Positions 2,499-60,342 of a stretch of DNA of 64,000 bases are shown piece by piece. The notes under the pieces are model-generated. The model did no database searches. It worked only from the letters and a program-made list of their open reading frames with translations, and was not told the origin of the DNA. Source of the stretch: an uncultured Bacteroidales bacterium (GTDB lineage: Bacteria > Bacteroidota > Bacteroidia > Bacteroidales > Paludibacteraceae); NCBI GenBank assembly GCA_902769535.1, contig CACXPH010000009.1:11032-75031 (forward strand), read 5' to 3'. The first letter of the stretch is position 1; each line of letters opens with the position of its first letter. The position numbers and the translations under genes were made by a program.

Positions 2499-2981
2499 TT
2501 AGTTAAACAATTGGATTTGTTCGAGGTAATTTTTGTCGATTTCATCGAAAGAATTGTAGTCTTTGCTGTCGATATCGAGTACGGCGATGACTTCTCCGTT
2601 TTGACGGATAGGCACAACGATCTCGCTTTTCGAGGCCGAGGAACAGGCTATATGGCCGGGGAACTCATGGACGTTCGGCACGATGAGCGTTTTGTTCTGC
2701 TGCCAGGCTGTTCCGCAGACACCCTTTCCGAACGGGATGCGGGTACAGGCGATAGGGCCTTGGAAAGGACCTAAAACCAATTCTTGGTTTATTGATGATT
2801 GATGATTTATGATTTCAAATTTAGGCTTTTCTTTTACAATATAAAAGCCAGTCCACCAGAAATGGAAGGTGTTGTGCAAGGCCGCGACAATGTTAGCCAT
2901 GTTAGCGATGAGGTCGGTCTCGCTGGAAATGAGAGACTGGATCTGCGGGAAGAGGGATTGGTATGTGGATTCTTTAGTCAT
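2499..2981 (-). CDS. GAF domain protein (free methionine-(R)-sulfoxide reductase family)
   Basis: 160 aa; LVLGPFQGPIACTRIPFGKGVCGTAW and EIVVPI blocks of the YebR/fRMsr GAF family. An extra KPKFEIINHQSSINQ loop is encoded by a heptamer tract. Confidence 0.7.
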   Translation of the reverse strand: MTKESTYQSLFPQIQSLISSETDLIANMANIVAALHNTFHFWWTGFYIVKEKPKFEIINHQSSINQELVLGPFQGPIACTRIPFGKGVCGTAWQQNKTLIVPNVHEFPGHIACSSASKSEIVVPIRQNGEVIAVLDIDSKDYNSFDEIDKNYLEQIQLFN

Positions 2982-10683: not shown

Positions 10684-10687
10684 CTCG

Positions 10688-10761: not shown

Positions 10762-10794
10762 TTGTTTTGTGCCCTCGTTTTTCGAAAGCGGGTG

Positions 10795-10826
10795 CAAAAG
10801 TACTGCTTTTTGTTGATATATGCAAA
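10795..10826 (-). promoter_or_regulatory. Bacteroidota-type promoter for tRNA-Asn
   Basis: Reverse strand TTTG-N20-TACTTTTG, about 35 nt upstream of the tRNA 5' end. Confidence 0.6.
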
Positions 10827-10901
10827 TTTTTTTGCAAAAAAATGCACTAAGAGGTGAAGATTTTTGAAAATTAACCCGATTTTTGGTCAAAAATAGCACA
10901 A

Positions 10902-11906: not shown

Positions 11907-11937
11907 TTAATTTGCAATCATAAATCTAAAATCATAA

Positions 11938-12648
11938 ATGAAAATCTTTTACTGGTTGTGGCAATATCTGATTGCTTGGCCGTTGCTCTTGGTGCTGACC
12001 GTTTTCACGGCGGTGTTCACCGTTTGTACTGTCGCTTGGCGTAATGCCGAGTTCGTGCATAAGGTACAGCAGTTCTGGTCGCGTTCGTTCTTCTGGCTGA
12101 TGTTTTTGCCCGTTTCTGTCGATGGAACCGAGCATATTAAGCCCGGGCAGAGTTATGTGTTCGTCGCAAACCACCAGTCGATGTTCGACGTGTGGTTGGT
12201 CTACGGCTGGCTGCCGGTGATCTTCAAATGGCTGATGAAAGCCGAGTTGCGCAAGGTGCCGTTTGTAGGTACAGGTTGCAAGGCTGCCGGACATATTTTC
12301 GTCGATCGTCGTAATGCCAAAGCGGCGATGGAGAGCCTCAAAGAGGTGGAGAAACAGCTGGTCAACGGTGTCTGCACGGTCATCTTCCCGGAAGGCACTC
12401 GTTCGCTCAACGGCGAAGTAGGTCGTTTTAAACGCGGTGCGTTCCAGATAGCCTGGGATCTGGGTCTGCCGGTTATTCCGCTGTCGCTGGACGGCTGCTA
12501 TGAAGTGCTGCCGAAAGGCAAACCCTTCGTGCGTCGCCATCCCGTACATATGCATATAGGCGAACCGATCGACCTCAAGCAATACGCGGACGCCAACGAA
12601 GCCATCGAGGCTGTTCGGAATGCCGTCATAGAAGGCCGCCTTCACTAA
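11938..12648 (+). CDS. plsC: 1-acyl-sn-glycerol-3-phosphate acyltransferase
   Basis: 236 aa; N-terminal TM segment, then ANHQSMFD (HX4D) and FPEGTRS acyltransferase motifs. Confidence 0.8.
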   Translation: MKIFYWLWQYLIAWPLLLVLTVFTAVFTVCTVAWRNAEFVHKVQQFWSRSFFWLMFLPVSVDGTEHIKPGQSYVFVANHQSMFDVWLVYGWLPVIFKWLMKAELRKVPFVGTGCKAAGHIFVDRRNAKAAMESLKEVEKQLVNGVCTVIFPEGTRSLNGEVGRFKRGAFQIAWDLGLPVIPLSLDGCYEVLPKGKPFVRRHPVHMHIGEPIDLKQYADANEAIEAVRNAVIEGRLH

Positions 12649-12687
12649 ACATTAAACATTAAATATTAAACATTCAACATTTATATC
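12646..12687. repeat. heptamer tract (TAAACAT-like x6) forming the whole intergenic spacer
   Basis: TAAACAT TAAACAT TAAATAT TAAACAT TCAACAT TTATATC runs from the plsC stop codon to the base before the HIT ATG. Confidence 0.9.
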
Positions 12688-13125
12688 ATGTATTCCGATC
12701 CGAAAGATTGTCTCTATTGCACGAACAATGAGACGCTTCATACCCTGATGATAGAGATCGCGCACCTACGCGTGTCGCGCGCGTTCGTATTTAAGGAGCA
12801 GACCTATCACGGTCGTTGCCTTGTGGCGTACGACAAGCATGTGAACGACCTCAATGAACTGGATGACGAGCAGCGTAACCTGTTCATGGCCGATGTGGCG
12901 GACGTCACGCGCGCTATGCAGAAACTGTTCAAGCCCGAGAAAATCAACTACGGTGCTTATTCCGATAAACTGAGTCATCTCCATTTCCACCTCGCTCCCA
13001 AATATGTGGACGGACCGGATTATGGCGGCACTTTCCAGATGAACCCGGGTAAGGTCTATCTGACCGATGCTGAGTACGAGGAGATGGTCGCTGCGCTGCG
13101 TAAAGAGCTGAAATCTGAATGCTGA
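12688..13125 (+). CDS. HIT family protein
   Basis: 145 aa; HLHFHLAPK histidine-triad motif. Confidence 0.7.
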   Translation: MYSDPKDCLYCTNNETLHTLMIEIAHLRVSRAFVFKEQTYHGRCLVAYDKHVNDLNELDDEQRNLFMADVADVTRAMQKLFKPEKINYGAYSDKLSHLHFHLAPKYVDGPDYGGTFQMNPGKVYLTDAEYEEMVAALRKELKSEC

Positions 13126-13139
13126 AAACTGAAATCTGA

Positions 13140-14303
13140 TTGCTTTTTAAAGATATCATAGGACAAGAGGCGACGAAGCAGCAGCTGCGTCAGGCTGTGC
13201 GTGAGGGACGAATACCTCATGCGCAGTTGTTTACGGGTATATCAGGGATCGGTAAGCTGCAGTTGGCGCTCGCCTATGTCCAGTATCTCAATTGTCCGCA
13301 TCGCACCGAGAGTGACAGTTGCGGTACCTGTCCGACCTGTCTGCAGTTCGAGAAACTCCAGCACCCGGACTTGCATTTCGTCTTTCCAATCGTGAAAACC
13401 GATGCCGGGGATACCTGCGACGCCTTCCTTGAACCATGGCGCGAGATTATCCTCAACAAGCATTATTTCGATCTCGAAGACTGGCACGAGGCCTTGGGTG
13501 TCGAGACCAAGCAGAGCATGATCTACGAGAAAGAGAGTGGTGAGATCCTGCGCAAACTCAGTCTGAAAGCGTACGGAGAGGGCTATAAAGTGATGATCAT
13601 CTGGCAGCCGGAGAAGATGAATGCCACCTCAGCCAATAAATTGCTGAAGATCCTCGAGGAACCGGCTCCTAAGACGGTCTTTCTGATGGTATCGGAGCAT
13701 CCGGAACAGTTGCTGGCTACCATTCAGTCGCGTGTGCAGACGATTCAAGTACCGCGCTTGGAGACTGAGACGATTGCTGAGGCTTTGCAGCAACGTGGGC
13801 TGAATGCTACCCAAGCCATCGACATCGCGCGTATCGCGAACGGTAGTTATCTGGCTGCGCTCAAAAAAGCCGATGAATCCGAAGAGAATCAACAAGAACT
13901 GCGCGATTTCATCGCACTTTTCCGCGATGCCTATACGGTCGGTGTACTCAAAGATCCGGAGAAGAAATACGAATCGCTCAAGCGTCTGCGTCAGTGGAGT
14001 CTCGACATGGCGGATAGCAAAGTGGGACGTGAACGGCAGAAACATTTTCTGCAGTATGCCCAACAGCAGATACGCGAGAACTACATCCGTAACATGGCGC
14101 AAACGGAACTGAACTACCAGATGGAAGCCGAACGCGCTTTCTCCGATAAGTTCGCGCCGTTTATCCACGACGGCAATGTGGAGGCCATCATGAACCAGTT
14201 GGATCTGGCGGAACGACAGATAGAGCAAAACGGCAATGCGAAGATGATCTTCTTTGACCTTTGCCTGCAAATGATAGTATTGATTAAAAAACCGAAGATA
14301 TGA
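13140..14303 (+). CDS. holB: DNA polymerase III subunit delta'
   Basis: 387 aa; IIGQE...PHAQLFTGISGIGK P-loop-like clamp-loader N-terminus, CGTCPTC zinc module, ANKLLKILEEP; TTG start. Confidence 0.75.
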   Translation: MLFKDIIGQEATKQQLRQAVREGRIPHAQLFTGISGIGKLQLALAYVQYLNCPHRTESDSCGTCPTCLQFEKLQHPDLHFVFPIVKTDAGDTCDAFLEPWREIILNKHYFDLEDWHEALGVETKQSMIYEKESGEILRKLSLKAYGEGYKVMIIWQPEKMNATSANKLLKILEEPAPKTVFLMVSEHPEQLLATIQSRVQTIQVPRLETETIAEALQQRGLNATQAIDIARIANGSYLAALKKADESEENQQELRDFIALFRDAYTVGVLKDPEKKYESLKRLRQWSLDMADSKVGRERQKHFLQYAQQQIRENYIRNMAQTELNYQMEAERAFSDKFAPFIHDGNVEAIMNQLDLAERQIEQNGNAKMIFFDLCLQMIVLIKKPKI

Positions 14304-15406: not shown

Positions 15407-15870
15407 AAAAAGCGGTTATAGGCTATGGGTTATGGGTGATAGGCCTATTGATGCTCTGCACGTCCTGCAGCACCGACACGGTCTATAGTCAATTTGTCGC
15501 GATTTCATCGGGAGAATGGCATGTGGACTCGGCGAAAGTGTTTGACTATACCATTGCTGATGCGCAACCCGGCTATCAGCTGTTGGTCTATGTGCGGCAT
15601 ACGGAGCGCTATCCGTATCAGAACATGTGGCTGTTTATTGACAACGGTGCACAGCGTGACACGATCGAGTTTTACTTAGCGGATGACCGCGGTCAATGGC
15701 TCGGCAACAAGCATCATGGTTTCATCGAGATGCCGGTGTTGCTTGAAGAGAACTATCATTATTCCGATACAGGCGCATACACGCTTTCTATCCAGCACGG
15801 CATGCGTGACAGTCTGCTGCGTGGCATTATGGATGTCGGTTTGGAGATTTCGAAAAATGGACAAGATTAA
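15403..15870 (+). CDS. gldH: gliding-motility-associated lipoprotein GldH
   Basis: 155 aa; lipoprotein signal ending [22 protein letters not shown] block; conserved position after holB-PSP1 in Bacteroidota. Confidence 0.6.
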
Positions 15871-19396: not shown

Positions 19397-20311
19397 ATGT
19401 GGACAATTTTAGCATTCATATCCGCACTGTGTCTGGGCTTTTATGACATCAGCAAGAAGATCGCCTTACGGGATAACAAGGTGGTGGACGTGTTGACGCT
19501 CAGTATCTGTGTGTCTGCGTTGTTGCTGTCTATTCCGCTTTGGTTGTCGCGGTTGTTCCCGGAAATGATGACAGGTACGCATTTCTATGTGCCGACGCTC
19601 GATCTGCAAGCGCATCTATACACCGTTCTCAAGTCGGTCATCGTGCTCAGCAGTTGGGTATTTGCTTATATATCGCTCAAGCATTTACCGCTATCCGTGG
19701 TAAGCCCGGCACAGGCTACCCGACCGATGTGGACGCTCGTCGGCGCATTGCTCCTCTTCGGCGAGCGGCTTAATACCTGGCAGTGGATCGGTGTGCTCCT
19801 TGCTATCGGAACGATCTTCATGCTCTCGTTCAAGAACCGCTCGTCGTTGATGCACCCTACTACCTCTGCCGATAACCGCTACTATGTAGCATTGGCATTA
19901 GCCATACTCATCGGCGCTTGTTCGGGATTGTACGACAAATACCTTATGCGGCGCTATGACCATAATGCCGTGCAGGTCTATTATACCTTCTATCAGGCGA
20001 TCATGATGATCATCGTGTGGTTGATTGCAAATCATAAATCTAAAATCAAAAACCTAAAATCTATCAAAAATAGTTGGGTAATTGTCTTGATTAGCCTGTT
20101 TTTGATCGTCTCTGACAATGTGTATATGTTGGCGCTGCGTGATCCGGACTCGCTCATCGCGGTGGTCAGCACCATTCGTCGAGGAGGTGCCGTGATAGGC
20201 TTTGCCTATGGATTGCTCTTCCTCAAAGAACCCGATCCGTGGCGTAAAGTAGTCAGTATGATCGGTATCTGTGCCGGCTTAATATGCCTTGCAATAGGTT
20301 CTATTGCATGA
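19397..20311 (+). CDS. EamA/DMT family transporter
   Basis: 304 aa with about 10 hydrophobic helices in two halves; carries an in-frame NHKSKIKNLKSIKN insert. Confidence 0.65.
   Translation: MWTILAFISALCLGFYDISKKIALRDNKVVDVLTLSICVSALLLSIPLWLSRLFPEMMTGTHFYVPTLDLQAHLYTVLKSVIVLSSWVFAYISLKHLPLSVVSPAQATRPMWTLVGALLLFGERLNTWQWIGVLLAIGTIFMLSFKNRSSLMHPTTSADNRYYVALALAILIGACSGLYDKYLMRRYDHNAVQVYYTFYQAIMMIIVWLIANHKSKIKNLKSIKNSWVIVLISLFLIVSDNVYMLALRDPDSLIAVVSTIRRGGAVIGFAYGLLFLKEPDPWRKVVSMIGICAGLICLAIGSIA
20030..20071. repeat. in-frame heptamer tract (AATCATA-like x6, 42 nt) inside the EamA gene
   Basis: AATCATA AATCTAA AATCAAA AACCTAA AATCTAT CAAAAAT; the first 19 nt are identical to the tract at 11916. 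Confidence 0.85.
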
Positions 20312-27071: not shown

Positions 27072-27159
27072 CTTGCAAGCCCTGATTTTAGAGCAAGTGC
27101 CGAGGATTTTACGGCTGGAAGCGTTTATTACTGTACAATCATAAATCATAAATAGTCAT

Positions 27160-28925: not shown

Positions 28926-30603
28926 GGAGCAAGCAGCTGCCGAGCGTCTGAGTGCCGAACTGGAGATCAGTCCGGTCGCCGGTCGTATATTAGCCGGTCG
29001 TGGTTTGCGTACAGCCGCTGAAGCGCGAGCGTATATACGTCCGTCGTTGGACAGCCTGCACGATCCTTTCCTCATGCGGGACATGGGTGCGGCTATAGAT
29101 CGTCTTTGCCGGGCGATAGACAACCACGAGCGAATCATGGTCTATGGCGATTATGATGTGGATGGAACGACCGCTGTGGCACTCATGTACTCGTTCCTCC
29201 GCACCCAGACCGACAACCTCATCTATTATATTCCCGATCGCTATACGGAAGGCTATGGTATCTCTACCAAAGGTATTGACACGGCCAAGGAGAAAGGTTG
29301 TTCCCTTGTTATCGCCCTTGACTGCGGTATCAAAGCCGTGGAGAAAATGGACTATGCTAACAGTATCGGTGTGGACTTTATCATCTGTGACCACCATACG
29401 CCGGGAGATGAGATTCCGCGTGCGGTAGCGGTGCTGAACATGAAGCGAAAGGACTGCTCTTATCCATTCAAAGAACTCAGCGGATGCGGCGTCGGTTTCA
29501 AACTGGCGCAAGCATATGCACAGCGTCGTGGATTGGATATGCAGGAGATCTATCGTCTCTTACCGCTGCTCGCTATGTCCATTGCCAGTGATATAGTACC
29601 GGTTACGGGTGAAAACCGAATCCTCGCTTTCTATGGCCTACGTGCACTCAATGCCTTCCCCTCTGTGGGACTGCAGGCAATCATGCAGGTGGCGGGTATA
29701 GAAGGCAAGACCATCACCATCAGTGACCTTGTCTATAAGATCGGTCCGCGCATCAATGCTGCCGGACGTATTAAGAGTGGTGCCGAAGCCGTGCGCTTGC
29801 TGATTACCACCGATGCAGAGACGGCGTTACAATTCGCGCGGGATATCGATTCCTATAATCAAGACCGTCGTGATTATGATTCCAAGACTACGGATGAAGC
29901 ACTCGAACAGTTGGCAAAAGACCCGATGAATGCGAGCCGATTCACTACGGTTGTCTATTCGCCCGATTGGCATAAAGGGGTCGTGGGAATAGCCGCCAGT
30001 CGTCTGACGGAGACCTATTACCGACCGACGATCGTGCTTACTGCCGGAGAGGATGATATCATCAGCGGTAGTGCCCGTTCGGTCAGTGATTTCGATATCT
30101 ATACAGCTATTGACTCCTGTCGTGACCTGCTTACCAATTTTGGTGGACATAAGTTCGCGGCTGGACTCAGTATGCATCTCAAAGACCTGCCGGAGTTCCA
30201 ACGGCGTTTTGAACAGTATGTGGCAGCGCATATCACTCCCGACCAACAATGCCCGACACTCGATGTGGAGGCGGAAGTGGAACTGAGCGATATGGACTGG
30301 AAGATGTACAAGATCCTGCAGTGCCTCGAGCCTTTTGGACCAGGGAACGAACGTCCGCTCTTCTTATGCCGTCATCTGATCAACAATCGGAACACGCGTG
30401 CGGTAAGCGATGGCCGTCATCTGCATCTGGATCTTACGGACCAGGTGGTAGCGATGGACGGTATCGCGTTCGGTCAAGGCGACAAAGCTACCCATCTGCA
30501 AAACGGTAATTCCGTCGATGTATGTTTCTATCTTGAAGAGAATACTTATCGCGGTCGCACTACCCTCCAGATGAATGCGCAGGATATTCATTTAAATGAA
30601 TAA
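28888..30603 (+). CDS. recJ: single-stranded-DNA-specific exonuclease RecJ
   Basis: 571 aa; YGDYDVDGTT, ALDCG, ICDHH DHH motifs and GGHKFAAG DHHA1 motif. Confidence 0.9.
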   Translation: MNTNWHIRQLTPEEQAAAERLSAELEISPVAGRILAGRGLRTAAEARAYIRPSLDSLHDPFLMRDMGAAIDRLCRAIDNHERIMVYGDYDVDGTTAVALMYSFLRTQTDNLIYYIPDRYTEGYGISTKGIDTAKEKGCSLVIALDCGIKAVEKMDYANSIGVDFIICDHHTPGDEIPRAVAVLNMKRKDCSYPFKELSGCGVGFKLAQAYAQRRGLDMQEIYRLLPLLAMSIASDIVPVTGENRILAFYGLRALNAFPSVGLQAIMQVAGIEGKTITISDLVYKIGPRINAAGRIKSGAEAVRLLITTDAETALQFARDIDSYNQDRRDYDSKTTDEALEQLAKDPMNASRFTTVVYSPDWHKGVVGIAASRLTETYYRPTIVLTAGEDDIISGSARSVSDFDIYTAIDSCRDLLTNFGGHKFAAGLSMHLKDLPEFQRRFEQYVAAHITPDQQCPTLDVEAEVELSDMDWKMYKILQCLEPFGPGNERPLFLCRHLINNRNTRAVSDGRHLHLDLTDQVVAMDGIAFGQGDKATHLQNGNSVDVCFYLEENTYRGRTTLQMNAQDIHLNE

Positions 30604-30633
30604 ATGGTAAATGATAAAATCGTAAATAGTTTT

Positions 30634-31224
30634 ATGTTTTCCGAAAGAGACACCAAAGGCCCGTCCTTACGTAAGGGTTCAATCGAAGTGGTATGCGGAT
30701 CGATGTTCAGTGGCAAGACCGAAGAACTCATCCGTCGTATGAAACGTGCTAAATTTGCCAAACTGCGTGTGGAGATCTACAAGCCGGCTATTGATGTGCG
30801 TTACAGCGAAGAAGATGTGGTCAGCCACGACCGCAATGTCATCCAGTCCACGCCTGTCGATAGCAGTCAGAATATCCTGCTGATGGTCGATGATATCGAT
30901 GTAGTCGGTATTGACGAGGCGCAGTTCTTCGATATGGGTATCGTGGATGTATGTAAACAGTTAGCTGACCGAGGTATACGCGTTATCTGTGCCGGTCTGG
31001 ATATGGATTTTAAGGGTGTTCCTTTCGGTCCGATGCCGGCGCTCATGGCTATTGCCGATGATGTGTATAAGACCCATGCCATCTGTGTCCACTGCGGTGA
31101 TCTGGCGTACGTGAGCCACCGTCTCGTGGCTTCCGACAAGCGCGTCTTGTTAGGTGAAACGGATAGTTACGAACCCCTCTGCCGTGAGTGTTATAACAAA
31201 GCCATAGCCGCTGAAAACTATTGA
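30634..31224 (+). CDS. tdk: thymidine kinase
   Basis: [15 protein letters not shown]-loop, IDEAQFF, C-terminal CVHCG...CRECY zinc site. Start could also be the ATG at 30604, which lies inside a heptamer tract. Confidence 0.85.
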
Positions 31225-31279: not shown

Positions 31280-33235
31280 TTGTCTATACCCACACCGGGT
31301 ACACGCGTTATCGTGCCCTTGATGAACAAATCGGTGCGAGGTATTGTGTTGCGGGAACATACCGAACCTATCGACGAATCTTTTGCATCTAAGATTAAAC
31401 CTGTCTCCTATGTCAGTGAGACGGCACCTGCTGTATCACCCGAGCAGTTAGCGCTCTGGCAATGGATGAGCACCTATTACATGTGTCCGTTAGGCGATGT
31501 GATGGCTGCAGCTTTGCCTGCCGGTCTGGATAAACGGCTCCTTAACCCGCCTACACGTCGACGAGCGCACATGGCACCTTATACAGGGCCGATCGAACCC
31601 ATGCATGCACTTTCGCCTGCACAGGCGAAAACAGTCGATTCCATCGGAACTTTTTGGAATTCAGGAAAGGATATCGTATTGCTGCATGGCGTCACTTCGT
31701 CCGGTAAGACGGATATCTATATCCATCTCATCCAAGCGCAGTTAGAGGCTGGCAAGAACGTCCTTTATCTCGTGCCGGAGATAGCCCTCACCACCCAACT
31801 GACATCGCGTCTGCAACGTATATTCGGTGATCGCCTCATGGTCTATCATAGTCGTCTGACCGATGCCGAACGGGAAGAGTGCTATCAACAAATCACAAAT
31901 CAACAATCAGAAATCACCAATAACTTCGTGGTCTTGGGACCAAGAAGTGCGGTCTTCTTGCCCATCCCGAATATCGGACTGGTCATCGTAGATGAAGAGC
32001 ATGACCCGAGTTATAAGCAGGCGGAACCGAACCCGCGTTATCATGCGCGCGCGACAGCCATTGTCCTGGCGAAAGAGCATAAGGCTAAAGTGCTGTTGGG
32101 AACAGCGACACCCTCGGTAGAGTCGTATTACCTGGCGCAGAAAGGTACGTACGGCCTGGTGACGCTCTCCGAACGATTCGGTGGCGTTGAACTGCCGGCT
32201 ATCACACTCATAGACCTTCGGCAGCAGTACGAGCGCAAGGAGATGGAAGGCCATTTTAGTGATTCGCTTATCGCGCGTATACGGGAATGTCTGGCAGACC
32301 ATAAGCAGGTCATTCTCTTCCAGAACAGACGCGGTTATGCCCCGCAGATACAGTGTATCAACTGTGGTCAGCCGCCTCGTTGTATTCAGTGCGACGTGCC
32401 TATGACGCTCCATATGCGCGAACATGAACTGCGTTGTCATTACTGCGGTTATCATGCACCTATACCGGCTGTCTGTCCGCACTGCGGAGGTGAGTATAAG
32501 ACCATCGGCTTCGGTACCGAACGTATCGAGGATGAGATACAGACGCTCTTTCCTGAGGCACGTGTGATGCGTATGGATCTGGATACAACGCGGAATAAAT
32601 CCGCATACCAGGATATCATCAATGCTTTCGCCAACCACGAATGCGATATTCTCGTCGGAACGCAAATGGTAACCAAAGGACTCCATTTTGACGATGTGCG
32701 TCTGGTAGCGGTGCTCAATGCCGATCCGCTCTTTAACCAACCCGACTTCCGCGCCTACGAGCGTGTTTATCAGATGCTCGAACAGGTAGCAGGACGTGCC
32801 GGACGAAAAGGCACCAAAGGCGAAGTGCTCATCCAGACTTTCGATACATCGAATAAAGTGCTTGAGATGGTGCAGGCGCATGATTACAATGCCCTTTACA
32901 CCCAGCAGATAGCCGAGCGCCAACTGTTCAACTATCCACCATTCTATCGGATCATCCGCCTGCAACTGCGTGACCATAATGCCGTGCGTGTGCATCGAGT
33001 GGCAACGCAACTTCAGACCTATCTCAGTCGTATATTCGGACCTCGTGTGTCCGGTGTTATCATTCCTTCCGTGGAACGTGTGCAAGCGTATACACTTCGC
33101 GAGCTCACCCTGCGTATTGAGAACACTGCTTCTATCGCCGAAGCCAAACGAAGACTGAAAGAGTGTATAGAGCAAATTTTCTCGATTCCATCGAATAAAA
33201 ACACGAAATTAATCATAGACGTAGATCCGCAATAA
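31280..33235 (+). CDS. priA: primosomal protein N' (replication restart helicase PriA)
   Basis: HGVTSSGKT Walker A, VDEEHD, Cys-rich zinc cluster (CINCG...CIQC...CHYCG...CPHCG). PriA-like sequence ([19 protein letters not shown]) continues in frame upstream to about 31211. Confidence 0.85.
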   Translation: MSIPTPGTRVIVPLMNKSVRGIVLREHTEPIDESFASKIKPVSYVSETAPAVSPEQLALWQWMSTYYMCPLGDVMAAALPAGLDKRLLNPPTRRRAHMAPYTGPIEPMHALSPAQAKTVDSIGTFWNSGKDIVLLHGVTSSGKTDIYIHLIQAQLEAGKNVLYLVPEIALTTQLTSRLQRIFGDRLMVYHSRLTDAEREECYQQITNQQSEITNNFVVLGPRSAVFLPIPNIGLVIVDEEHDPSYKQAEPNPRYHARATAIVLAKEHKAKVLLGTATPSVESYYLAQKGTYGLVTLSERFGGVELPAITLIDLRQQYERKEMEGHFSDSLIARIRECLADHKQVILFQNRRGYAPQIQCINCGQPPRCIQCDVPMTLHMREHELRCHYCGYHAPIPAVCPHCGGEYKTIGFGTERIEDEIQTLFPEARVMRMDLDTTRNKSAYQDIINAFANHECDILVGTQMVTKGLHFDDVRLVAVLNADPLFNQPDFRAYERVYQMLEQVAGRAGRKGTKGEVLIQTFDTSNKVLEMVQAHDYNALYTQQIAERQLFNYPPFYRIIRLQLRDHNAVRVHRVATQLQTYLSRIFGPRVSGVIIPSVERVQAYTLRELTLRIENTASIAEAKRRLKECIEQIFSIPSNKNTKLIIDVDPQ

Positions 33236-35266: not shown

Positions 35267-37351
35267 ATGAATAAACCCTCTCAAAAGAAAACACAGAAAG
35301 ACCACGGTGGTCTATGGATCATCCTCGTTGCGGCAGTAGCATTGGAGGCTATCTCCTGCCTTATGTACTTCACCAGCCGCGCTGCCATCCGTCAACAAGC
35401 GGAGCAACGTGCCAAGACCGAGTTACGTCGTGCGGAACTGGAGATAGATGTTCATGCTATCGAAATGGAAACAGCCGCTAAGGGTTTGGCGCTGCTGGTT
35501 CAAAAGCATATTAACGAACCGGATTATATCTTCGCCGCCACTCGGCTGGCAGTAAGTACATTGCGCGCCAACACCAGCATGGCGGTCGCGTTCATTCCTA
35601 ACTATTTCCCTAAAAAAGGGGAGTTCTTCGAGATCTGCAGCAGCCGTTTCTCGGAGGATAGTATCTACACGCGTCAGATAGGTAGTGCCACCCATGACTA
35701 CACCCAAATGGAATGGTATCAAAATGGCTTGGTGTATGACAGTTGCCGGTGGTGCGAGCCGTACTTGGACGATTCGGGTTCGAAGACCTATGTGGTCAGT
35801 TATTCATGCCCTGTACACGACGCAAACGGCAAAGTGGTGGCTGTCGTATGTATCGATATGTCGCTGGACGAACTCAAGAACATCTCCGAATATCTGCAGG
35901 TCTATCCAAACAGCTATTATACCATCCGTTCCGGTACTGGCGTGGAGATCGTACCTGCGCCGGATACCGTGCCCGGGCGCAGATATAATATCTATGGAGA
36001 AGATATAGATGCCACCGGTTGGCACATCGAGATCATCATTCCCGAAGAGGAACTCTTCCGCGACCTCAATCATATCGGACGCATCGTTGGATTGCTGATG
36101 CTTTTAGGCCTGGCAATGCTCATCCTTATTGTATGGTACGCCGGTCGTAACACCAAACGTATGGTCGAATCGACAGCGCGTAACCAGAGTATCGAGAACG
36201 AACTCAATATCGCGCGTAAGATCCAGATGGCAATGCTGCCGACGCGTTTCCCGCCATTCCCGGACTATCCGTACCTGAATGCATACGGTGAAGTGATTCC
36301 GGCTAAAGAAGTAGGTGGTGACCTGTTTGATTTCTTTATCCGCGAGAACAAACTGTTCTTCTGCGTCGGTGACGTGAGTGGAAAAGGTGTACCGGCATCC
36401 ATCGTGATGGCGATGACGCGTTCTATCTTCCGCAGTTTCTCGTCCTACCTGAACAGCCCGGCGCAGATTGTCACGCAGATGAACGACAGCCTCAGCGGAG
36501 AAGGTAATGACCAGAGTATGTTCGTCACCTTGTTCCTCGGTGCACTCGACCTCTCCACCGGTGAACTCAAATACTGCAACGCCGGTCACAATGCCCCCAT
36601 ACACCATACACCATACACCATACACCAATTAGATTGTACACCGAATCTTCCTCTCGGTGTGCTGGGTGGCTTTGCATATCAGGAACAAGAAGCGAAACTG
36701 GAGATCGGTGACTCCCTGTTCCTCTATACTGACGGCTTGACCGAAGCAGAGAACAGCGCACATGAACAGTTCGGGGAGCAGAGGATGGATGAGCGGTTAG
36801 CGGCGAGCGGCGAGCAGAGTCCGCAAGAACTCATCCAGACGATGCAGCAAGCCGTGGCTGCGTTTGTAGGTGATGCCGAGCAGAGCGACGACCTGACCAT
36901 GTTCGCCATCCGGTTGTTAGACAAATCTCAAATCTCAAATGTCAAATCTCAAATGAGCTCAGGCCATTACTCCCTCGTCATGCGTAATGATATCCAGCAG
37001 ATACCGACGCTCGCCGAGTGGGTGGAGATGATCGGTCTTCCGCAAGAACTCAATATGCCGATCAACCTGGCGCTCGAAGAGGCGGTAAGTAACGTCATGC
37101 TATACGCCTATCCGGGTAAGAGCGGACAAGTGCTCATAGAGTGCGACAAGTTCGACAAGCTGGTATTCACCATTACCGACAGCGGTGTACCGTTCGACCC
37201 GACGCAACAGGAAGATCCGGACGTGACGCAGAGTGCAGAAGACCGCCCGATTGGCGGTTTGGGTATTTTCCTCGTTCGCCAGATCATGGATGACATCCGC
37301 TATGAACGCAAAGACAATAAGAATATTCTGACATTAACAAAAAAATTATAA
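35267..37351 (+). CDS. membrane sensor with PP2C/SpoIIE phosphatase fused to an RsbW-type HATPase serine kinase
   Basis: 694 aa; two TM segments bracket a ~240-aa extracytoplasmic region. PP2C blocks are GGDLFDFF, CVGDVSGKG, NAGHN, LYTDGLTEA, DDLTMFAI. The C-terminus LALEEAVSNV...GGLGIFLVRQIMD is an anti-sigma-kinase-like ATPase. Confidence 0.8.
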   Translation: MNKPSQKKTQKDHGGLWIILVAAVALEAISCLMYFTSRAAIRQQAEQRAKTELRRAELEIDVHAIEMETAAKGLALLVQKHINEPDYIFAATRLAVSTLRANTSMAVAFIPNYFPKKGEFFEICSSRFSEDSIYTRQIGSATHDYTQMEWYQNGLVYDSCRWCEPYLDDSGSKTYVVSYSCPVHDANGKVVAVVCIDMSLDELKNISEYLQVYPNSYYTIRSGTGVEIVPAPDTVPGRRYNIYGEDIDATGWHIEIIIPEEELFRDLNHIGRIVGLLMLLGLAMLILIVWYAGRNTKRMVESTARNQSIENELNIARKIQMAMLPTRFPPFPDYPYLNAYGEVIPAKEVGGDLFDFFIRENKLFFCVGDVSGKGVPASIVMAMTRSIFRSFSSYLNSPAQIVTQMNDSLSGEGNDQSMFVTLFLGALDLSTGELKYCNAGHNAPIHHTPYTIHQLDCTPNLPLGVLGGFAYQEQEAKLEIGDSLFLYTDGLTEAENSAHEQFGEQRMDERLAASGEQSPQELIQTMQQAVAAFVGDAEQSDDLTMFAIRLLDKSQISNVKSQMSSGHYSLVMRNDIQQIPTLAEWVEMIGLPQELNMPINLALEEAVSNVMLYAYPGKSGQVLIECDKFDKLVFTITDSGVPFDPTQQEDPDVTQSAEDRPIGGLGIFLVRQIMDDIRYERKDNKNILTLTKKL
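36597..36627. repeat. (CCATACA) x4.4 heptamer tract inside the PP2C domain
   Basis: Four perfect head-to-tail copies plus CCA; encodes HHTPYTIHQ. Confidence 0.9.
36922..36956. repeat. (CAAATCT-like) x5 heptamer tract in the PP2C-kinase linker
   Basis: CAAATCT CAAATCT CAAATGT CAAATCT CAAATGA; encodes SQISNVKSQMS; same word family as 39602-39636. Confidence 0.9.
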
Positions 37352-37355: not shown

Positions 37356-37658
37356 ATGACAATCAACATCGTTAACGAGGGCGAGCAACTGGTTGCACAA
37401 CTCTCCGGAAGATTAGACACCGCTGCGGCTGCAGAGATTGCACCGGATTTCCAGGCACTCGCAGAACAAGCTGCTAAACACATCATTCTGGACTGCTCTG
37501 AACTGGAGTACATCTCTTCGTCGGGTCTGCGTTTGTTCCTTGCCTTGCGCAAAGAGTCCGCTGCCAAAGGCGGCAAACTGCAGGTTCGGGCTATCAATGC
37601 CGACATCCGTCAAGTATTCATGATGACCGGCTTCATCAGCCTCTTCGAAATCCTCTAA
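37356..37658 (+). CDS. STAS domain protein (anti-sigma-factor antagonist type)
   Basis: 100 aa; LSGRLDT, LDCSELEYISSSGLR (phosphorylatable Ser context), FEIL C-terminus. Confidence 0.85.
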   Translation: MTINIVNEGEQLVAQLSGRLDTAAAAEIAPDFQALAEQAAKHIILDCSELEYISSSGLRLFLALRKESAAKGGKLQVRAINADIRQVFMMTGFISLFEIL

Positions 37659-37679
37659 ACTTTAAACGCTAAACGTTTT

Positions 37680-38729
37680 ATGGACCTACATTCGGAAATG
37701 CTGCTGGAGGAGTACCGCGAAGCGAAGCCTGTGTTCGAACAGATGCAAGGCGAAGTCACGCGTATCCTGAAGGAAGCCTTAGAGCGCAACGGACTCATTG
37801 TGACAGCCGTCGAGACGCGTATCAAGACCGAAGAGAGTCTGGCGGGCAAACTGGCACTCAAGGGCTCTAAGTACGCCACGCTCAGCGACATCACCGACAT
37901 CCTTGGTGCGCGTATCATCACCTTCTATACCGACGACGTGGACCGTATTGCCGCCATGGCGGAACAGCTCTTCGAGATCGATTGGACCAACTCCGTCGAT
38001 AAGCGTAAACTGCACCAACTGGACAGTTTCGGGTATAACTCGCTACACTATATCTGCCGTCTGCCGGGTTATGACTACCGCTTCGAACTGCAACTACGTA
38101 CCACACTCCAACACGCTTGGGCGGCAATTAATCATGATAACGGCTATAAGTCCGGCGTGGAGATTCCGCGCGAGTACATGCGACGAATCAACCGACTGGC
38201 AGGCCTACTGGAGATAGCCGATGACGAGTTCAGTCACATCCGGACAGAGATTAACGACTATCGTCGTCGCGTACAACAACTGGTACAAAACGGACAACTG
38301 GACGATGTACTGTTGGACGGTGACGCTTTCCGTAGTTACCTGAATGCACGACCGTTTGATAAACTCAACAAACGCATTGCGGCTATCAATCAAGCGGAGA
38401 TCCAAGAAGTGCCGTTAATCCGGTACCTAAAAGTGCTCAAAGAGTTGGGATGCAACACCTTAGGCGATGTGGCGCGTCTGCGTAATACCTACGAGGAAGA
38501 CGCCTATGCGCTTGCACGCCATCAGTTGGGAAATACCGACCTTGATATCATCTCGTCCGCTGTCGGACTGCAGAACATCTGCATCGTGTGCATCCTTTCG
38601 CAAGGCGGTGGTAAGATCGGCCTGCTGCGCTTCTTCAATGCCCTCAACGGACATGATTCGCAGAACGAAGAACTGGCGGACCTCACCTTCAAACAGGCCT
38701 CTAACTTGCCGTTTATGAATAAATCGTAA
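37680..38729 (+). CDS. RelA/SpoT-domain small alarmone synthetase with an unassigned C-terminal half
   Basis: 349 aa; RIKTEESLAGKL, ILGARIITFY, FGYNSLHYI, ELQLRTTLQHAWAAINHDNGYK synthetase motifs in residues ~40-170. The last ~170 aa are unrecognised. Confidence 0.8.
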   Translation: MDLHSEMLLEEYREAKPVFEQMQGEVTRILKEALERNGLIVTAVETRIKTEESLAGKLALKGSKYATLSDITDILGARIITFYTDDVDRIAAMAEQLFEIDWTNSVDKRKLHQLDSFGYNSLHYICRLPGYDYRFELQLRTTLQHAWAAINHDNGYKSGVEIPREYMRRINRLAGLLEIADDEFSHIRTEINDYRRRVQQLVQNGQLDDVLLDGDAFRSYLNARPFDKLNKRIAAINQAEIQEVPLIRYLKVLKELGCNTLGDVARLRNTYEEDAYALARHQLGNTDLDIISSAVGLQNICIVCILSQGGGKIGLLRFFNALNGHDSQNEELADLTFKQASNLPFMNKS

Positions 38730-38763
38730 TAACGAAATTACGTAATTATGTAATCCTGAAAAA
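38724..38763 (+). repeat. junction element copy 1 (octamer-built, contains ATTACGTAAT palindrome)
   Basis: TCGTAATAACGAAATTACGTAATTATGTAATCCTGAAAAA; 36/40 identical to 40199-40238. Confidence 0.9.
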
Positions 38764-38764
38764 T

Positions 38765-39604
38765 ATGAACCCTATTTTAATAGATCTCAACGACTACGTA
38801 CGTACCGGCGAAGGAGCTAACGGTGCGAGTTATAACCATAAGACCGATCCGTCGATCATGATGAAGATGTACTTCCGCAATTTCGAGGCAGCCGCGCTCG
38901 AACTCGAACTGGCGAAGAAGGTCTATGCTGCAGGCATCCCTACTCCGGAACCAGGCGACCTCGTGACAGACGGCGAGCGCATTGGTATTCGTTTCCGACG
39001 CATTGACGGCAAGAAATCCTATTCGCGTGCCTGCGGTGACGAACCCGAGAAAGCACCTGAGTTCGGACGTGAGTTCGCGCAGCTCTGCAAGAAACTGCAC
39101 TCCATTCACGTGGACACCACGCAGTTCGAATCCGTCAAAGACCGCCTCTATCGCATGCTGGAGAACAATCCGGATTTCACGCCGGCACAGAAGACCAAAC
39201 TGCATGATTTCATTGCAGCTGCTCCGGATGCGGACACGGCCATCCATGGGGATTTGCAGTTCGGTAACGGCATTTTCACGGATAAAGATGGTGTGCATAC
39301 GCAATACTTCATCGACCTCGGTGATTTCTGTTACGGTTATCCTATGTTCGACCTCGGCATGGTCTATCTATGCTGTTGCCTCAATGACGAAACATGGACC
39401 ATGGAAGTGAACCATATGTCCAATGCTACCGCACGCAAATTCTGGGATGGTTTTGCTCGTGAGTACTTTGGTCCGAATGCTGACCTCGAAGAGGTAGAAA
39501 AGGTTGTTCGTATCTACGCCGGTCTCAAGACCATCATGATCGAGCGTGACACGCACTGTCCGATGCCCCAATTCCGTGCCATGCTTGAAGGCGTCATTTA
39601 TTAA
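38765..39604 (+). CDS. APH-fold (aminoglycoside-phosphotransferase-like) kinase family protein
   Basis: 279 aa; HGDLQFGNGIF catalytic loop and IDLGDF metal-binding motif. Confidence 0.7.
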   Translation: MNPILIDLNDYVRTGEGANGASYNHKTDPSIMMKMYFRNFEAAALELELAKKVYAAGIPTPEPGDLVTDGERIGIRFRRIDGKKSYSRACGDEPEKAPEFGREFAQLCKKLHSIHVDTTQFESVKDRLYRMLENNPDFTPAQKTKLHDFIAAAPDADTAIHGDLQFGNGIFTDKDGVHTQYFIDLGDFCYGYPMFDLGMVYLCCCLNDETWTMEVNHMSNATARKFWDGFAREYFGPNADLEEVEKVVRIYAGLKTIMIERDTHCPMPQFRAMLEGVIY

Positions 39605-39625
39605 ATCTCAAATTTAAAATCTCAA

Positions 39626-40204
39626 ATGTCAAATAAGTATCTTGATACTTCCCTGCTTGACCGCGCAATCATCTTCGCCGTTCAAGCGCATCACAACACC
39701 GAACGGCGCGGTAAAGGTTTTCCTTATATCGTTCATCCGATGGAAGCCGTCGAGATCGTAGCTACTATCACACCCGATCAGGAACTGTTGGCAGCGGCTG
39801 CGCTGCATGACACCATCGAAGATACGGACGTGACGGTAGAAGACATCCGTACGCAGTTCGGAGACCGTGTGGCGGAACTGGTGCATGCCGAGTCCGATCA
39901 GTTCACCGAAGGAGTCTCCGAAGAGGACAGTTGGCACGAACGTAAGCAAGCCGCTATCGACCGTCTGGCAGCCGCTTCGCACGACGCCAAGATCGTAGCG
40001 ATGGGAGATAAACTGAGTAACATGCGCGCCATCTGGCGGGACTATCAGACCAAAGGTGACGAACTGTGGACTATCTTCCATGTGAAGAACAAAGCTTCGC
40101 ACGAATGGCATTATCGCGGTCTCGCAGCTTCTTTGTCCGAGTTGAGTGACACCTTTGCCTACCAAGAGTTCGTACGACTGATTAATGAGGTATTTAATTC
40201 GTAA
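39626..40204 (+). CDS. HD-domain small alarmone hydrolase-like protein (SpoT/Mesh1 type)
   Basis: 192 aa; AHHNTERRG, VHPMEAV, ALHDTIEDT, FGDRVAELV blocks of the (p)ppGpp hydrolase domain. Confidence 0.75.
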   Translation: MSNKYLDTSLLDRAIIFAVQAHHNTERRGKGFPYIVHPMEAVEIVATITPDQELLAAAALHDTIEDTDVTVEDIRTQFGDRVAELVHAESDQFTEGVSEEDSWHERKQAAIDRLAAASHDAKIVAMGDKLSNMRAIWRDYQTKGDELWTIFHVKNKASHEWHYRGLAASLSELSDTFAYQEFVRLINEVFNS

Positions 40205-40238
40205 TAACGCAATTACGTCATTACGTAATCCCGAAAAA
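40199..40238 (+). repeat. junction element copy 2
   Basis: TCGTAATAACGCAATTACGTCATTACGTAATCCCGAAAAA. Confidence 0.9.
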
Positions 40239-40240
40239 CA

Positions 40241-43966: not shown

Positions 43967-44332
43967 ATGAAAGAAGTAACGACAAAGAAATTGATGGAAA
44001 CCATTGTAGAGGGTATCCGAAATCGTAAGGGACAACGAATTGTGACGATTGATTTGAAGAAAATCAAAGAAGCACCGGTGGAGATGATGATTATCTGCGA
44101 GGGTCAGAGTAACACACAAGTGTCGGCTATAGCGGATGAGATAGATGACTTCGTACGCACGACGACGCACGTGCATCCGCTAAGTGTGTCGGGCCAGGAG
44201 AACGCCGAGTGGATCGCGATGGACTACGGTACGATTTTCGTGCACGTCATGCAGCGTGAGCCGCGTGCTTTCTATGATATAGAGCACCTCTGGGCAGATG
44301 GTAAAATCACAGAACTCGAGGATGTTCTGTGA
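43967..44332 (+). CDS. rsfS: ribosome silencing factor
   Basis: 121 aa; DYGTIFVHVMQREPRAFYDIEHLW block typical of RsfS/YbeB. Confidence 0.85.
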   Translation: MKEVTTKKLMETIVEGIRNRKGQRIVTIDLKKIKEAPVEMMIICEGQSNTQVSAIADEIDDFVRTTTHVHPLSVSGQENAEWIAMDYGTIFVHVMQREPRAFYDIEHLWADGKITELEDVL

Positions 44333-44371
44333 TATTTATGATTTATGATTTTAGATTTTTGATTTTCCATG
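44330..44371. repeat. heptamer tract (TATGATT-like x6, 42 nt) from rsfS stop to ftsH ATG
   Basis: TGATATT TATGATT TATGATT TTAGATT TTTGATT TTCCATG. Confidence 0.9.
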
Positions 44372-49214: not shown

Positions 49215-49233
49215 ATACTGAACAAGGAATGCT

Positions 49234-51332: not shown

Positions 51333-51348
51333 CTCTGACTTCTAACTT

Positions 51349-52722
51349 CTAACCTCTAATAACGTCCATTACTTTCTGCGCCAACTCATTGGCCTCATCC
51401 ATGGTCGCAGCCTCGGAATAGACGCGGATAATCGGTTCGGTATTGGACTTGCGAAGATGTACCCAACCTTGTGCGAAATCTATCTTCACACCATCGCGGT
51501 CGTTCACTTTTTCGTTCGTGTAGAGTTCCTTGACACGCGCTAAGATGGCATCTACATCGGTATCCGGTGTGAGATCGATACGGTTCTTGCTGATACAGTA
51601 ATCAGGTAATGTACGACGCAGTTCACTCACTTTCATATCCAGGTGCGCCAGATGACTCAAGAAAAGGGCAATTCCTACCAGTGCATCACGTCCATAGTGA
51701 CAAGCCGGATAGATCACACCACCGTTACCTTCACCGCCGATAACTGCGTTCATACGTTTCATCTCCGCCACTACATTCACTTCGCCTACAGCGCTCGCGC
51801 TGTACTGACCGCCGTGTGCCTTGGTTACATCGCTCAACGCACGAGTTGACGACATATTACTTACCGTATTACCCGGTGTGTGGCGCAATATATAATCGGC
51901 CACGCTGACCAGCGTATATTCCTCGCCGAACATATCTCCGTTCTCGCAGATAATAGCCAAGCGGTCCACATCCGGATCAACAACAAAGCCTACATCCGCC
52001 TTACCGCTCTTCAGCAGGTCGCTGATCTGAGTCAAGTGTTGCGGCAGCGGTTCGGGATTATGCGGGAAATGACCGTTCGGTGTGCAGTTCAGTTCGATGA
52101 TATTCTCTACGCCTAGAGCCTTTAGAATAGCCGGAATAGCCAGTCCGCCTACGGAGTTGACACAATCAATAGCGACGGTGAAATGCTTTTTCTTAATCGC
52201 TTCGGTATCCACCAAGGGCAGTTTCAGCACCTGCTCTACGTGGTACGGCAGATAATCCTTGGTTGCCATATGACCCAACTGATCTACTTCGGCAAAAACA
52301 AAATCCTCTGCCCCTGCAATCTCCAATACACCCTTGCCTTCGGCATCATTGAGGAACTCGCCGTGCTCATTGAGCAGTTTGAGTGCGTTCCATTGTTTGG
52401 GATTATGGCTGGCGGTAAGGATGATACCTCCTGCGGCTTTCTCGCCGGTCACAGCCAGCTCGGTGGTCGGAGTTGTGGCCAAGCCGATATTCACGACGTC
52501 ATACCCCATCCCCATGAGTGTACCGCACACGATCTGTTCCACCATAGGTCCGCTCAGACGGGCATCACGCCCCACTACAATCACGTTGTTATCCGGCATA
52601 GCAGCCCTACGTTGGGTGGCATAAGCTGCCGTGAAACGAACGATATCTACAGGATTCAGACCGTCACCTACACGACCGCCAATCGTGCCACGGATACCCG
52701 AAATACTCTTAACAAGACTCAT
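51349..52722 (-). CDS. glmM: phosphoglucosamine mutase
   Basis: 457 aa; SISGIRGT, TASHNP phosphoserine loop, DPDVDR metal loop, GGEGNGG. Confidence 0.9.
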   Translation of the reverse strand: MSLVKSISGIRGTIGGRVGDGLNPVDIVRFTAAYATQRRAAMPDNNVIVVGRDARLSGPMVEQIVCGTLMGMGYDVVNIGLATTPTTELAVTGEKAAGGIILTASHNPKQWNALKLLNEHGEFLNDAEGKGVLEIAGAEDFVFAEVDQLGHMATKDYLPYHVEQVLKLPLVDTEAIKKKHFTVAIDCVNSVGGLAIPAILKALGVENIIELNCTPNGHFPHNPEPLPQHLTQISDLLKSGKADVGFVVDPDVDRLAIICENGDMFGEEYTLVSVADYILRHTPGNTVSNMSSTRALSDVTKAHGGQYSASAVGEVNVVAEMKRMNAVIGGEGNGGVIYPACHYGRDALVGIALFLSHLAHLDMKVSELRRTLPDYCISKNRIDLTPDTDVDAILARVKELYTNEKVNDRDGVKIDFAQGWVHLRKSNTEPIIRVYSEAATMDEANELAQKVMDVIRG

Positions 52723-57393: not shown

Positions 57394-57412
57394 CTTTCAC
57401 CTTTCACCTTAA

Positions 57413-60301: not shown

Positions 60302-60342
60302 TCTTTAAACTTTAAACTTTCTAATAATCGTGCCCTTTAGGG

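Follow-up and report, generated by a model that had tools for sequence, protein, structure and literature searches.

Heptanucleotide tandem tracts at operon junctions and inside genes of uncultured rumen Paludibacteraceae

Heptamer tracts of the window

We analysed a 64,000-nt stretch of DNA (hereafter the window) from an uncultured Bacteroidales bacterium of the family Paludibacteraceae (assembly GCA_902769535.1, contig CACXPH010000009.1, positions 11,032 to 75,031 of the forward strand), in which head-to-tail repeats of 7 nt occupy many gene junctions and also lie in frame inside genes. The tract flagged in a preliminary description of this DNA lies at 12646..12687 on the + strand, between the TAA stop codon of plsC (an acyltransferase gene) and the ATG of a HIT-family gene, where about 5.5 copies of a TAAACAT-like unit fill the entire 39-nt spacer. 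Tandem Repeats Finder (TRF) reports 12646-12681 as a period-7 repeat of 5.1 copies with 89% matches, and this result and our reading of the sequence agree with the tract as first described. The gene names proposed in that description likewise agree with Pfam (acyltransferase, HIT, DNA_pol3_delta2, EamA, GAF, PriA, RsfS, FtsH).

By TRF and by our own period scan, the excess of 7-nt periodicity extends over the whole window, which holds 16 period-7 tracts at a score of at least 10 against 0.07 expected from locally shuffled sequence. No other primitive period is comparably enriched; what is conspicuous besides are periods 14 and 21, as multiples of 7, and two 11-mer arrays. The tracts consist of three or more head-to-tail 7-nt copies and are over-represented both against shuffles and against other periods, as is required of heptanucleotide long simple sequence repeats (SSRs). 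The further heptamer sites listed initially (at 2791, 11916, 13106, 20029, 27137, 30593, 31884, 36922, 37655, 39603, 44330, 49204, 51334, 57385 and 60303) were borne out by TRF or by reading; a site at 59224-59251, also listed as a heptamer tract, is a pair with a 14-nt period, and tracts at 36597-36627, 36791-36815, 15414-15448, 57342-57372 and 62600-62620 had been missed (TRF, period scan). A scan of the window at Rfam gathering thresholds returned two tRNAs only, and no match at the tracts.

The window has 22 co-directional spacers with a length of 12-80 nt, and 11 of these are heptamer tracts. On the + strand, AATCATA/AATCTAA units lie between the PfkB gene and plsC (11916..11946, TRF), and a CTGAAAN tract (13106..13142, TRF) runs over the C-terminus and stop codon of the HIT gene and the TTG start of holB; its family is also found at the HIT-holB junction of relatives. 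Directly 5' of the FloA ATG are 2.4 copies of AATCATA (27137..27157, TRF and period scan), and from the RecJ stop to the TK ATG at 30634 there is a cassette of TAAATGA, TAAATGG and TAAAATCG (30593..30636, TRF). This ATG, rather than position 30604, is probably the TK start, and 30604-30633 is therefore either spacer or an N-terminal extension. Further along the same strand, the junction between the STAS and RelA/SpoT-like genes holds about 3.5 copies of CTAAACN (37655..37682), homologous only in L005 (loci from relatives, described below, carry L numbers), and the CAAATNT tract between the APH and HD genes extends into the HD start and first codons (39602..39636, TRF). ATTTATG/ATTTTTG units, a reverse-complement relative of the AATCATA family, fill the interval from the RsfS TGA to the FtsH ATG (44330..44371), and CTGAAAA/CTGAATA units lead from an M16 peptidase stop to the SurE ATG (49204..49231, TRF). 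The junction tracts of the - strand are those between PGM/PMM and LpxB (51333..51360, sense AGTTAGA; TRF, period scan), between an NTP_transferase gene and a hybrid two-component gene (57376..57412, sense AAGGTGA/ATAGGTT; TRF, period scan), which belongs to a TRAAGGT family present at 11 junction types, and between a PP-loop gene and a DMT_6 gene (60303..60323, CTTTAAA x 2.6; TRF), beside a small GCCC-TAAA-GGGC hairpin element.

Tracts inside coding sequences (CDS) occupy variable loops, linkers, and signal peptides or hydrophobic N-terminal membrane segments. On the + strand, GGTTATR/GGCTATG units encode the core of the GldH lipoprotein signal peptide (15414..15448, TRF), and a 42-nt tract encodes the loop NHKSKIKNLKSIKN of an EamA protein (20029..20071, TRF). 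As EamA is not contained in the HIT-centred loci, its homologues were found by protein search; the loop is present in all 120 of 120 homologues at least 74% identical, where it is hypervariable with a 7-residue periodicity. The PriA tract (31884..31923, TRF) encodes QQITNQQSEITNN in a loop 5 residues longer than in solved PriA structures. The PriA open reading frame (ORF), as listed, has a TTG start and lacks part of the usual N-terminus, and the TK-PriA spacer upstream of it (31225-31279) contains a GC-rich inverted repeat (CCATCCGAGAC...GTCCCGGATGG) and no heptamer tract. A SpoIIE-type phosphatase gene carries a perfect CCATACA x 4.4 (HHTPYTIH) in a hypervariable loop (36597..36627, TRF), GAGCGGC x 3.6 (36791..36815, TRF) and, in the linker to its HATPase domain, CAAATCT x 4.7 (36922..36956, by ortholog comparison). 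The linker tract forms part of a segment of 15 residues, which L010-L042 lack and which L008 and L047 have in a version shortened by 7 residues (21 nt); different heptamer-coded peptides stand at that position in other species, and the L007 orthologue has HTPYTIHHTP there, coded by the CCATACA unit that the window uses in the other loop. On the - strand are the tract of the GAF gene, similar to free Met-R-sulfoxide reductase (2791..2825, TRF), which is a 12-14 residue insertion missing from the solved homologues with inspected alignments (3mmh, 3ksf), four copies of sense TTGTTCN in the hydrophobic N-terminus of the hybrid two-component protein (57342..57372, TRF), and ATAACCC x 3 near the 5' end of a DUF2490 gene (62600..62620, TRF and period scan).

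Spread, position and turnover in the lineage

Relatives were collected by scanning species-representative genomes with the RelA/SpoT-like protein, which gave rumen metagenome-assembled genomes (MAGs) labelled Paludibacteraceae or Bacteroidales with protein identities reaching 95%, and a scan of metagenomes with the HIT protein gave 80 further loci. The Paludibacteraceae-like set (134 loci, 1.71 Mb) contains 301 period-7 tracts against 1 in shuffled sequence, with smaller numbers for period 8 (67 against 10) and period 11 (45 against 0). A second Bacteroidales clade, at about 52% RelA identity, has 48 tracts against 1 in 198 kb, and rumen Clostridia loci obtained with the same query have 2 against 0 in 233 kb. 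Heptamer tracts are found lineage-wide and are no peculiarity of the window. Their repertoire is large, with 89 distinct units among 176 junction tracts, which excludes a single shared unit or motif. They had been called G-poor, which holds for the + strand of the window and not across the lineage, where the sense-strand composition is A 0.43, T 0.30, G 0.16 and C 0.11; an excess of C over G, considered as a clue to replication-strand asymmetry, likewise fails relative to transcription and across the lineage.

The enrichment at gene junctions is apparent in the larger sample, in which about half of the tracts fall in the 8.6% of bases that are non-coding, mostly in stop-to-start spacers. The 291 non-redundant tracts divide into 148 intergenic, 47 CDS-edge and 96 CDS-internal ones, and their density per base is about 11-fold higher in non-coding than in coding DNA, the coding depletion that is expected of long SSRs. 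Among co-directional spacers of 8-80 nt, 131 of 503 (26%) hold a tract. About 70% of junction tracts (97 of 140) start at or before the first base of the spacer, with the mode on the stop codon, and therefore half of them carry stops in all three sense frames (50%, against 18% in shuffled sequence and 30% on the antisense strand). Their ends cluster between -2 and +7 nt from the start codon, the position described for TAACTGA repeats by MacGregor. When the window was scanned for the Bacteroidota -33/-7 promoter motif (TTGY-N17-22-TAnnTTTG), none was found in tract spacers and promoters were predicted in longer spacers only, so that the motif map places the junction tracts inside predicted operons. 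Tracts with 4.x copies make up 52 of the 96 CDS-internal and 51 of the 148 intergenic cases, a CDS-internal peak that would be expected if three units (21 nt) were added to a seed. The density inside genes is far above the shuffled expectation; tract formation therefore goes on everywhere, with selection as a filter, and the surplus at junctions is best explained by tolerance combined with seeding at stop and start codons. Tracts are retained mainly where the reading frame is irrelevant, in the stop-to-start spacers of packed co-directional operon genes, or in frame in loose protein segments.

We compared seven orthologous junctions, five in the SpoIIE-STAS-RelA-APH-HD block together with plsC-HIT and HIT-holB, and at these the relatives differ in the presence, unit and length of the tract. 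They alternate between ATGA or TAATG overlaps or spacers of 1-4 nt, which are the ancestral-looking state, and tracts of 14-126 nt built from different 7-mers, or sometimes from 8-mers. The STAS-RelA tract is missing in the closest relatives (L001-L004, 90-95% RelA identity), which have spacers of 1-2 nt instead, and the APH-HD tract is likewise replaced by 1-2 nt in L001 and L003. At plsC-HIT the spacers of relatives are built of other units and measure 1-126 nt. Among close relatives the unit family is kept and the copy number differs, as in an AACATTA/AACATTC tract that has 39 nt in the window but is shorter in L110 (38 nt) and L096 (32 nt); more distant relatives have unrelated units. Many units are visibly derived from conserved local sequence, one example being the repetition of the last four coding bases and the stop (attgTAA giving ATTGTAA x n). 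The turnover of tracts between species is fast.

Differences between strains are differences of whole units. The conspecific strain L163 is 98.4% identical to the window over 10687-30312 (19.6 kb), and the two show two tract-associated indels, each of exactly 7 nt, at 12658 and 13134, both in flagged tracts: L163 has one ATTAAAT unit fewer in the plsC-HIT tract, and one unit fewer at 13134, where its holB starts with ATG instead of the TTG of the window. Apart from these, the two sequences have gaps only in a compensated 1+1-2 nt patch within EamA and in a homopolymer that differs by 1 nt. When locus pairs of 93-99% identity are compared, indels of at least 5 nt most often measure 7 nt, with seven such events (six within tracts and one beside a tract) and one additional event of 28 nt. 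Alleles thus differ between strains by whole units, as those of long SSRs do, and growth and shrinkage by whole 7-nt steps is characteristic of strand slippage, or of unequal exchange, in a 7-nt register. Slippage at gene ends had been among the explanations first offered; the two one-unit steps against L163 and the modal indel size uphold the slippage, but with 96 of 291 tracts CDS-internal it is not specific to gene ends.

Changes of copy number within a species, one of which alters the start context of holB (ATG or TTG), could also be taken for the work of contingency loci, in which hypermutable repeats turn particular genes on or off by phase variation. We regard this as very improbable, since the genes concerned are housekeeping genes (plsC, HIT, holB, ftsH, priA, recJ), the junction tracts lie outside reading frames, those in CDSs are in frame and none lies in a promoter motif, so that no switching of expression is indicated. 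The only two changes are those between the window and L163, at 1.6% divergence, and none is seen in L164 or L165 (98.8%); L081 and L082 are identical to the window over four tracts, so that three independent assemblies agree there, and in L081 the identity extends over 13 kb. In these assemblies the tracts show no hypermutability of the contingency-locus kind. The same comparisons leave practically no room for an artefact of assembly or sequencing: the tracts recur in assemblies that were produced independently, with different assemblers and from different samples (L081, L082, L163-L168), and are identical in L081 and L082, which argues that they are genuine. They recur, too, with their flanks conserved, in MAGs and metagenome contigs by the hundred.

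We also considered whether the tracts are selected RNA features, either unstructured A/U- and stop-rich spacers that serve initiation independent of Shine-Dalgarno (SD) sequences or arrays of 7-nt sites bound by a protein for single-stranded RNA, for example S1 or a cold-shock OB-fold, at one protein per heptamer, with selection setting both position and period. Their location in stop-to-start spacers within operons and the A-rich sense strand (A 0.43) are consistent with such a role, as is the persistence of some tract at plsC-HIT in most relatives; S1, Csp or Csr binding has moreover been proposed for TAACTGA repeats, with a citation of CspB binding to heptamer repeats (PMC4679880). The mean minimum free energy (MFE) of start regions (-35 to +15) is -2.3 kcal/mol after tracts, compared with -4.5 after gaps of less than 8 nt and -4.3 after other spacers, and the flagged spacer and that at 39596 fold to 0 kcal/mol, while other heptamer spacers fold no better than shuffles. 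However, tracts have the composition of ordinary short spacers, and their folding is not significantly weaker than that of shuffled sequence (z +1.2 to +1.7), so that the weaker folding follows from base composition; RNA structure was accordingly rejected as a discriminating feature, since the tracts are poor in structure only to the degree that their base composition dictates. The 96 of 291 CDS-internal tracts, in which period 7 is far above expectation, lie outside anything that selection on leaders could explain, and the 89 different units offer no common binding motif. Orthologous junctions are often without a tract, the closest relatives differ, and some tracts (44330) are T-rich on the sense strand. 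Selection of this kind is therefore, in our judgement, an unlikely origin of the tracts. The landing pads for SD-independent initiation that had been suggested are in line with the weaker folding, but this is an effect of composition and many orthologues do without a tract. A role as a structure-poor, stop-rich intercistronic spacer is plausible and would be consistent with the data, and because so many orthologues lack tracts such a role is not required.

Kinship between tracts and their origin

The tracts at different sites are related beyond their shared composition. An exact 19-mer, AATCATAAATCTAAAATCA, is common to 11916 and 20030, and a reverse-complement relative with 1 mismatch lies at 44346, both as initially noticed; with up to 3 mismatches there are 6 matches in the window against 0.02 expected. 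The 18-mer AAATCTCAAATGTCAAAT is common to the phosphatase linker (36922-36954) and the APH-HD junction, where it includes the HD start codon. Identical consensus units occur at different sites of one locus in 25 of 555 pairs against 5.8 expected by label shuffling, a number reached in none of 1000 label shuffles, and the result holds without the richest loci and without nearby pairs; units are shared within genomes 3-4 times above expectation.

Composite cassettes give the same picture on a larger scale. The cassette TAAATGAYAAAATCGTAAAT of the RecJ-TK junction is found at 12 or more other junction types in relatives. The pattern TAAATGAC[CT]AAAT[GC]GTAAAT, a higher-order unit of 7+8 nt with an irregular 8-nt unit, is seen at 12 or more junction types in at least 15 species. 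Versions of about 43 nt with a second irregular unit, GTACAT, stand at three unrelated junctions, and cassette families are seen at 3-12 junction types. L037 has a composite block of about 95 nt at two junctions, and L007 has one unit in three coding loops and several junctions. The claim that copies are related across loci was sustained by both the unit sharing (25 against 5.8) and the composite cassettes at unrelated junctions.

These cassettes could also mean that the tracts are very small non-autonomous mobile elements, or derive from such elements, which would reach from a stop to a start codon, be copied among operon junctions and into coding loops by a dedicated or template-switching mechanism, and be modified by slippage only later. 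The spread of TAAATGAC[CT]AAAT[GC]GTAAAT over junction types and species, the GTACAT versions at three unrelated junctions, the duplicated L037 block, the 34-nt element at 38730 and 40205, and the sharing of units within genomes, including the loops and junctions of L007, would all fit this. Against it, no inverted ends or hairpins are apparent in the heptamer tracts (by-eye inspection only) and no target duplication was seen, the repertoire of units is highly diverse, many units are visibly drawn from local stop and start codon context, and the differences between strains are single-unit steps, not gains of whole blocks. The exact degenerate cassette TAAATGACYAAATSGTAAAT, with no mismatches allowed, has no match in viral contigs, and no associated gene was identified. 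We hold such elements to be improbable, and the single very small dispersed insertion sequence that had first been suggested is not borne out, given 89 units among 176 junction tracts and no match of the exact cassette pattern in viral contigs.

The explanation that we consider probable is that the tracts are heptanucleotide microsatellites formed by slippage in a 7-nt register, often seeded on stop or start codon context, and that the tracts of one genome additionally exchange sequence with each other. The bias towards 7 nt would then be a property of the replication or repair machinery, as in the polymerase-contact idea of Mrazek et al. 2007 as related in later papers, and the similarity between tracts would come from ectopic short-patch conversion or template switching between them. 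As a consequence, overlapping or abutting cistrons would be split by an A/U-rich, structure-poor and stop-rich spacer, which may modulate translation of the downstream gene without being required for it.

Several points weigh against this explanation. Slippage from local seeds alone cannot account for near-identical cassettes of 20-43 nt at unrelated junctions in different species, nor for one unit in several unrelated coding loops of L007. No event of de novo tract creation was caught in the compared loci, so that how the first duplication arose and why the unit has 7 nt are both inferred. Nearly every relative retains some tract at plsC-HIT, and the spacer there could be selected. The loci sampled are two syntenic regions with their flanks, and genes were called with a home-made codon-usage caller trained on long ORFs, which overlooks one or two genes such as SmpB (22167-22631).

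A bolder version, which we put forward tentatively and with more doubt than confidence, is that tract cassettes are actively propagated within the genome by templated copying into operon junctions and loose coding segments, which would proceed by short-patch ectopic conversion or by microhomology-primed template switching at the near-universal TAA and ATG ends. If so, each genome would build its own repertoire of units, and a shared pool would supply the sequence of new intercistronic spacers, protein loops and the cores of signal peptides, which would amount to a hairpin-less and enzyme-less micro-mobile DNA that is not described for Bacteroidota.

Other repeats, known systems and significance

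Fillers of another class are also present in the window. A hairpin element made of an 8-mer (ATTACGTA) fills the RelA-APH junction (38730..38764, +; window comparison), and a second copy of this 34-nt element lies between HD and the next gene (40205..40240, +; 2 matches, 0 expected). The two are about 88% identical, have a predicted 7-bp hairpin, and are each flanked by a TAA stop and the following ATG within one operon; related ACGTCATN 8-mer tracts are found at these junctions of L005, L007, L038 and L040. The GCCC-TAAA-GGGC mini-hairpin (AATAATCGTGCCCCTTTAGGGCTAA) and TCTCCCTTCCTTTTAGGAAGGGT..GGGTTAGGCTTTT are small junction elements with a look resembling that of repetitive extragenic palindromic (REP) sequences, found in both orientations or at several junctions (60319-60342 of the window, junctions of L036 and L025, and HIT-holB of L088, L089, L101, L102, L105, L106, L132 and L143). 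The two 11-nt arrays are AATAACATAAG x ~7 in a divergent promoter region (3464-3544) and AATCACGCATT x 4 in the NfeD-FloA gap (27020-27064), and units set one helical turn apart might conceivably bind proteins or curve the DNA. Among the dispersed repeats of the window, the largest families are copies of a stereotyped Bacteroidota promoter of about 45 nt (TTGCATATATGCAAAA...TAnnTTTGCAGC), at 7850, 10562, 20328, 26592, 35130, 41892 and 43911 on the + strand and at 58341, 26576, 19363, 10825, 7831, 7101, 3603 and 1764 on the - strand. Longer in-frame coding repeats lie at 3739-3970 (126-nt and 39-nt units, ORF 3643-4008) and 8819-9174 (60-nt units, ORF 8756-9214).

Two of the independent assemblies differ locally from the window. 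At about 5384 the window lacks 132 nt (44 codons, in frame) relative to the otherwise identical contig L082, inside an EcoRI-methylase-like gene (5338-6279, -) that adjoins a GmrSD/HNH gene. L081 is identical to the window until about 18824 and then diverges, lacking EamA and the adjacent outer membrane protein (OMP) beta-barrel genes (about 19397-21121), and this therefore marks a strain-level difference in gene content or a recombination boundary. Near 50000 gene orientation switches from + to - at a peak of cumulative GC skew, which would fit converging replication (a terminus-like region) or simply a change in the direction of transcription.

In the literature searched we found no report of such tracts in rumen Paludibacteraceae or Bacteroidales. 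In many bacteria heptanucleotides outnumber every other class of long SSR with a unit of 5-11 nt, and the contact length of the polymerase has been proposed as the cause of the 7 nt (Mrazek et al. 2007, as cited in PMC4679880 and PMC4692102). As far as those SSRs are represented in the two citing papers, ours resemble them in having tandem 7-nt units in lineage-specific excess, mostly intergenic, with many different units and slippage as the proposed mechanism (Mrazek, Guo & Shah 2007), and differ from them in forming the stop-to-start spacers of operons, in lying in frame within many genes, and in sharing units within genomes. The TAACTGA repeats found just 5' of start codons in marine Beggiatoaceae, some Cyanobacteria and five Bacteroidetes including Paludibacter propionicigenes (MacGregor 2015, PMC4679880) are similar in being stop-containing heptamers a few nt 5' of starts whose relatives have shorter, repeat-less spacers; there, however, a single unit dominates and related heptamers are seldom repeated, compared with about 90 units here, and horizontal spread was proposed, which is not indicated for the present tracts. 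Tandem TAACTGA occurs 0 times in the 2.26 Mb that we examined. The short tandemly repeated repetitive (STRR) sequences of Cyanobacteria are heptamers as well, and in Xanthomonas and Nostoc the G-rich heptamers GGGAATC and GGGGAYT, found for the most part between genes of like orientation, differ among close relatives (Rehm et al. 2015, PMC4692102). Like the tracts described here, these are intergenic, near the end of the upstream gene and variable in length and sequence, with one published example inside an operon (pecE-pecF); they consist of specific G-rich units with G-quadruplex potential, whereas ours are A/T-rich and diverse (PMC4692102). The STRR units CCCCAGT, TTGGTCA and CAACAGT of heterocystous cyanobacteria occur in tandem 0, 1 and 0 times in the same 2.26 Mb of sequence, from Bacteroidales and not Cyanobacteria, and no tandem GGGAATC-type units are present in the sequence examined.

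Very short sequences that recur at many intergenic sites, as the tracts do, are also found among REP and REPIN elements and the small dispersed repeats of Nostoc punctiforme. The latter (Elhai et al. 2008, cited in PMC3116915) are reportedly very short, present at many intergenic sites and associated with heptamer tandem repeats, and no autonomous element is known for them. REPs and REPINs are hairpins mobilised by RAYT transposases, unlike the heptamer tracts, in which inspection revealed no obvious hairpin; only the 8-mer and GCCC-TAAA-GGGC elements form small hairpins. In the tandem repeats of Borgs the units inside genes are multiples of 3 nt and much longer, unlike the present 7-nt unit, which is read in all three frames and gives a 7-residue periodicity in the peptide. 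The Borg repeats resemble ours in evolving fast, in arising independently in intergenic and in-frame positions, and in creating new protein segments (bioRxiv 10.1101/2022.05.18.492195).

The tracts extend the known bacterial heptamer SSRs to a new lineage, with three features that stand out: the filling of stop-to-start junctions in an SD-independent phylum, the frequent in-frame use in proteins, and genome-specific repertoires of units, which point to exchange between tracts. Why the long microsatellites of bacteria favour a 7-nt unit has been a question since the STRR and 2007 surveys, and little detailed work on this preference exists (PMC4692102). For the present lineage there are rumen genomes by the hundred, uncultured but well sampled, in which a given junction gains a tract, exchanges it for another or loses it within short evolutionary distances, and comparative genomics could therefore map the determinant of the 7-nt bias. 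The tracts alter the spacing of genes, start codons (ATG or TTG in holB), C-termini (HIT) and protein loops; automatic gene calling will put starts in the wrong place, as with TK (30604 or 30634), and they are relevant to studies of translation coupling in SD-independent Bacteroidota.

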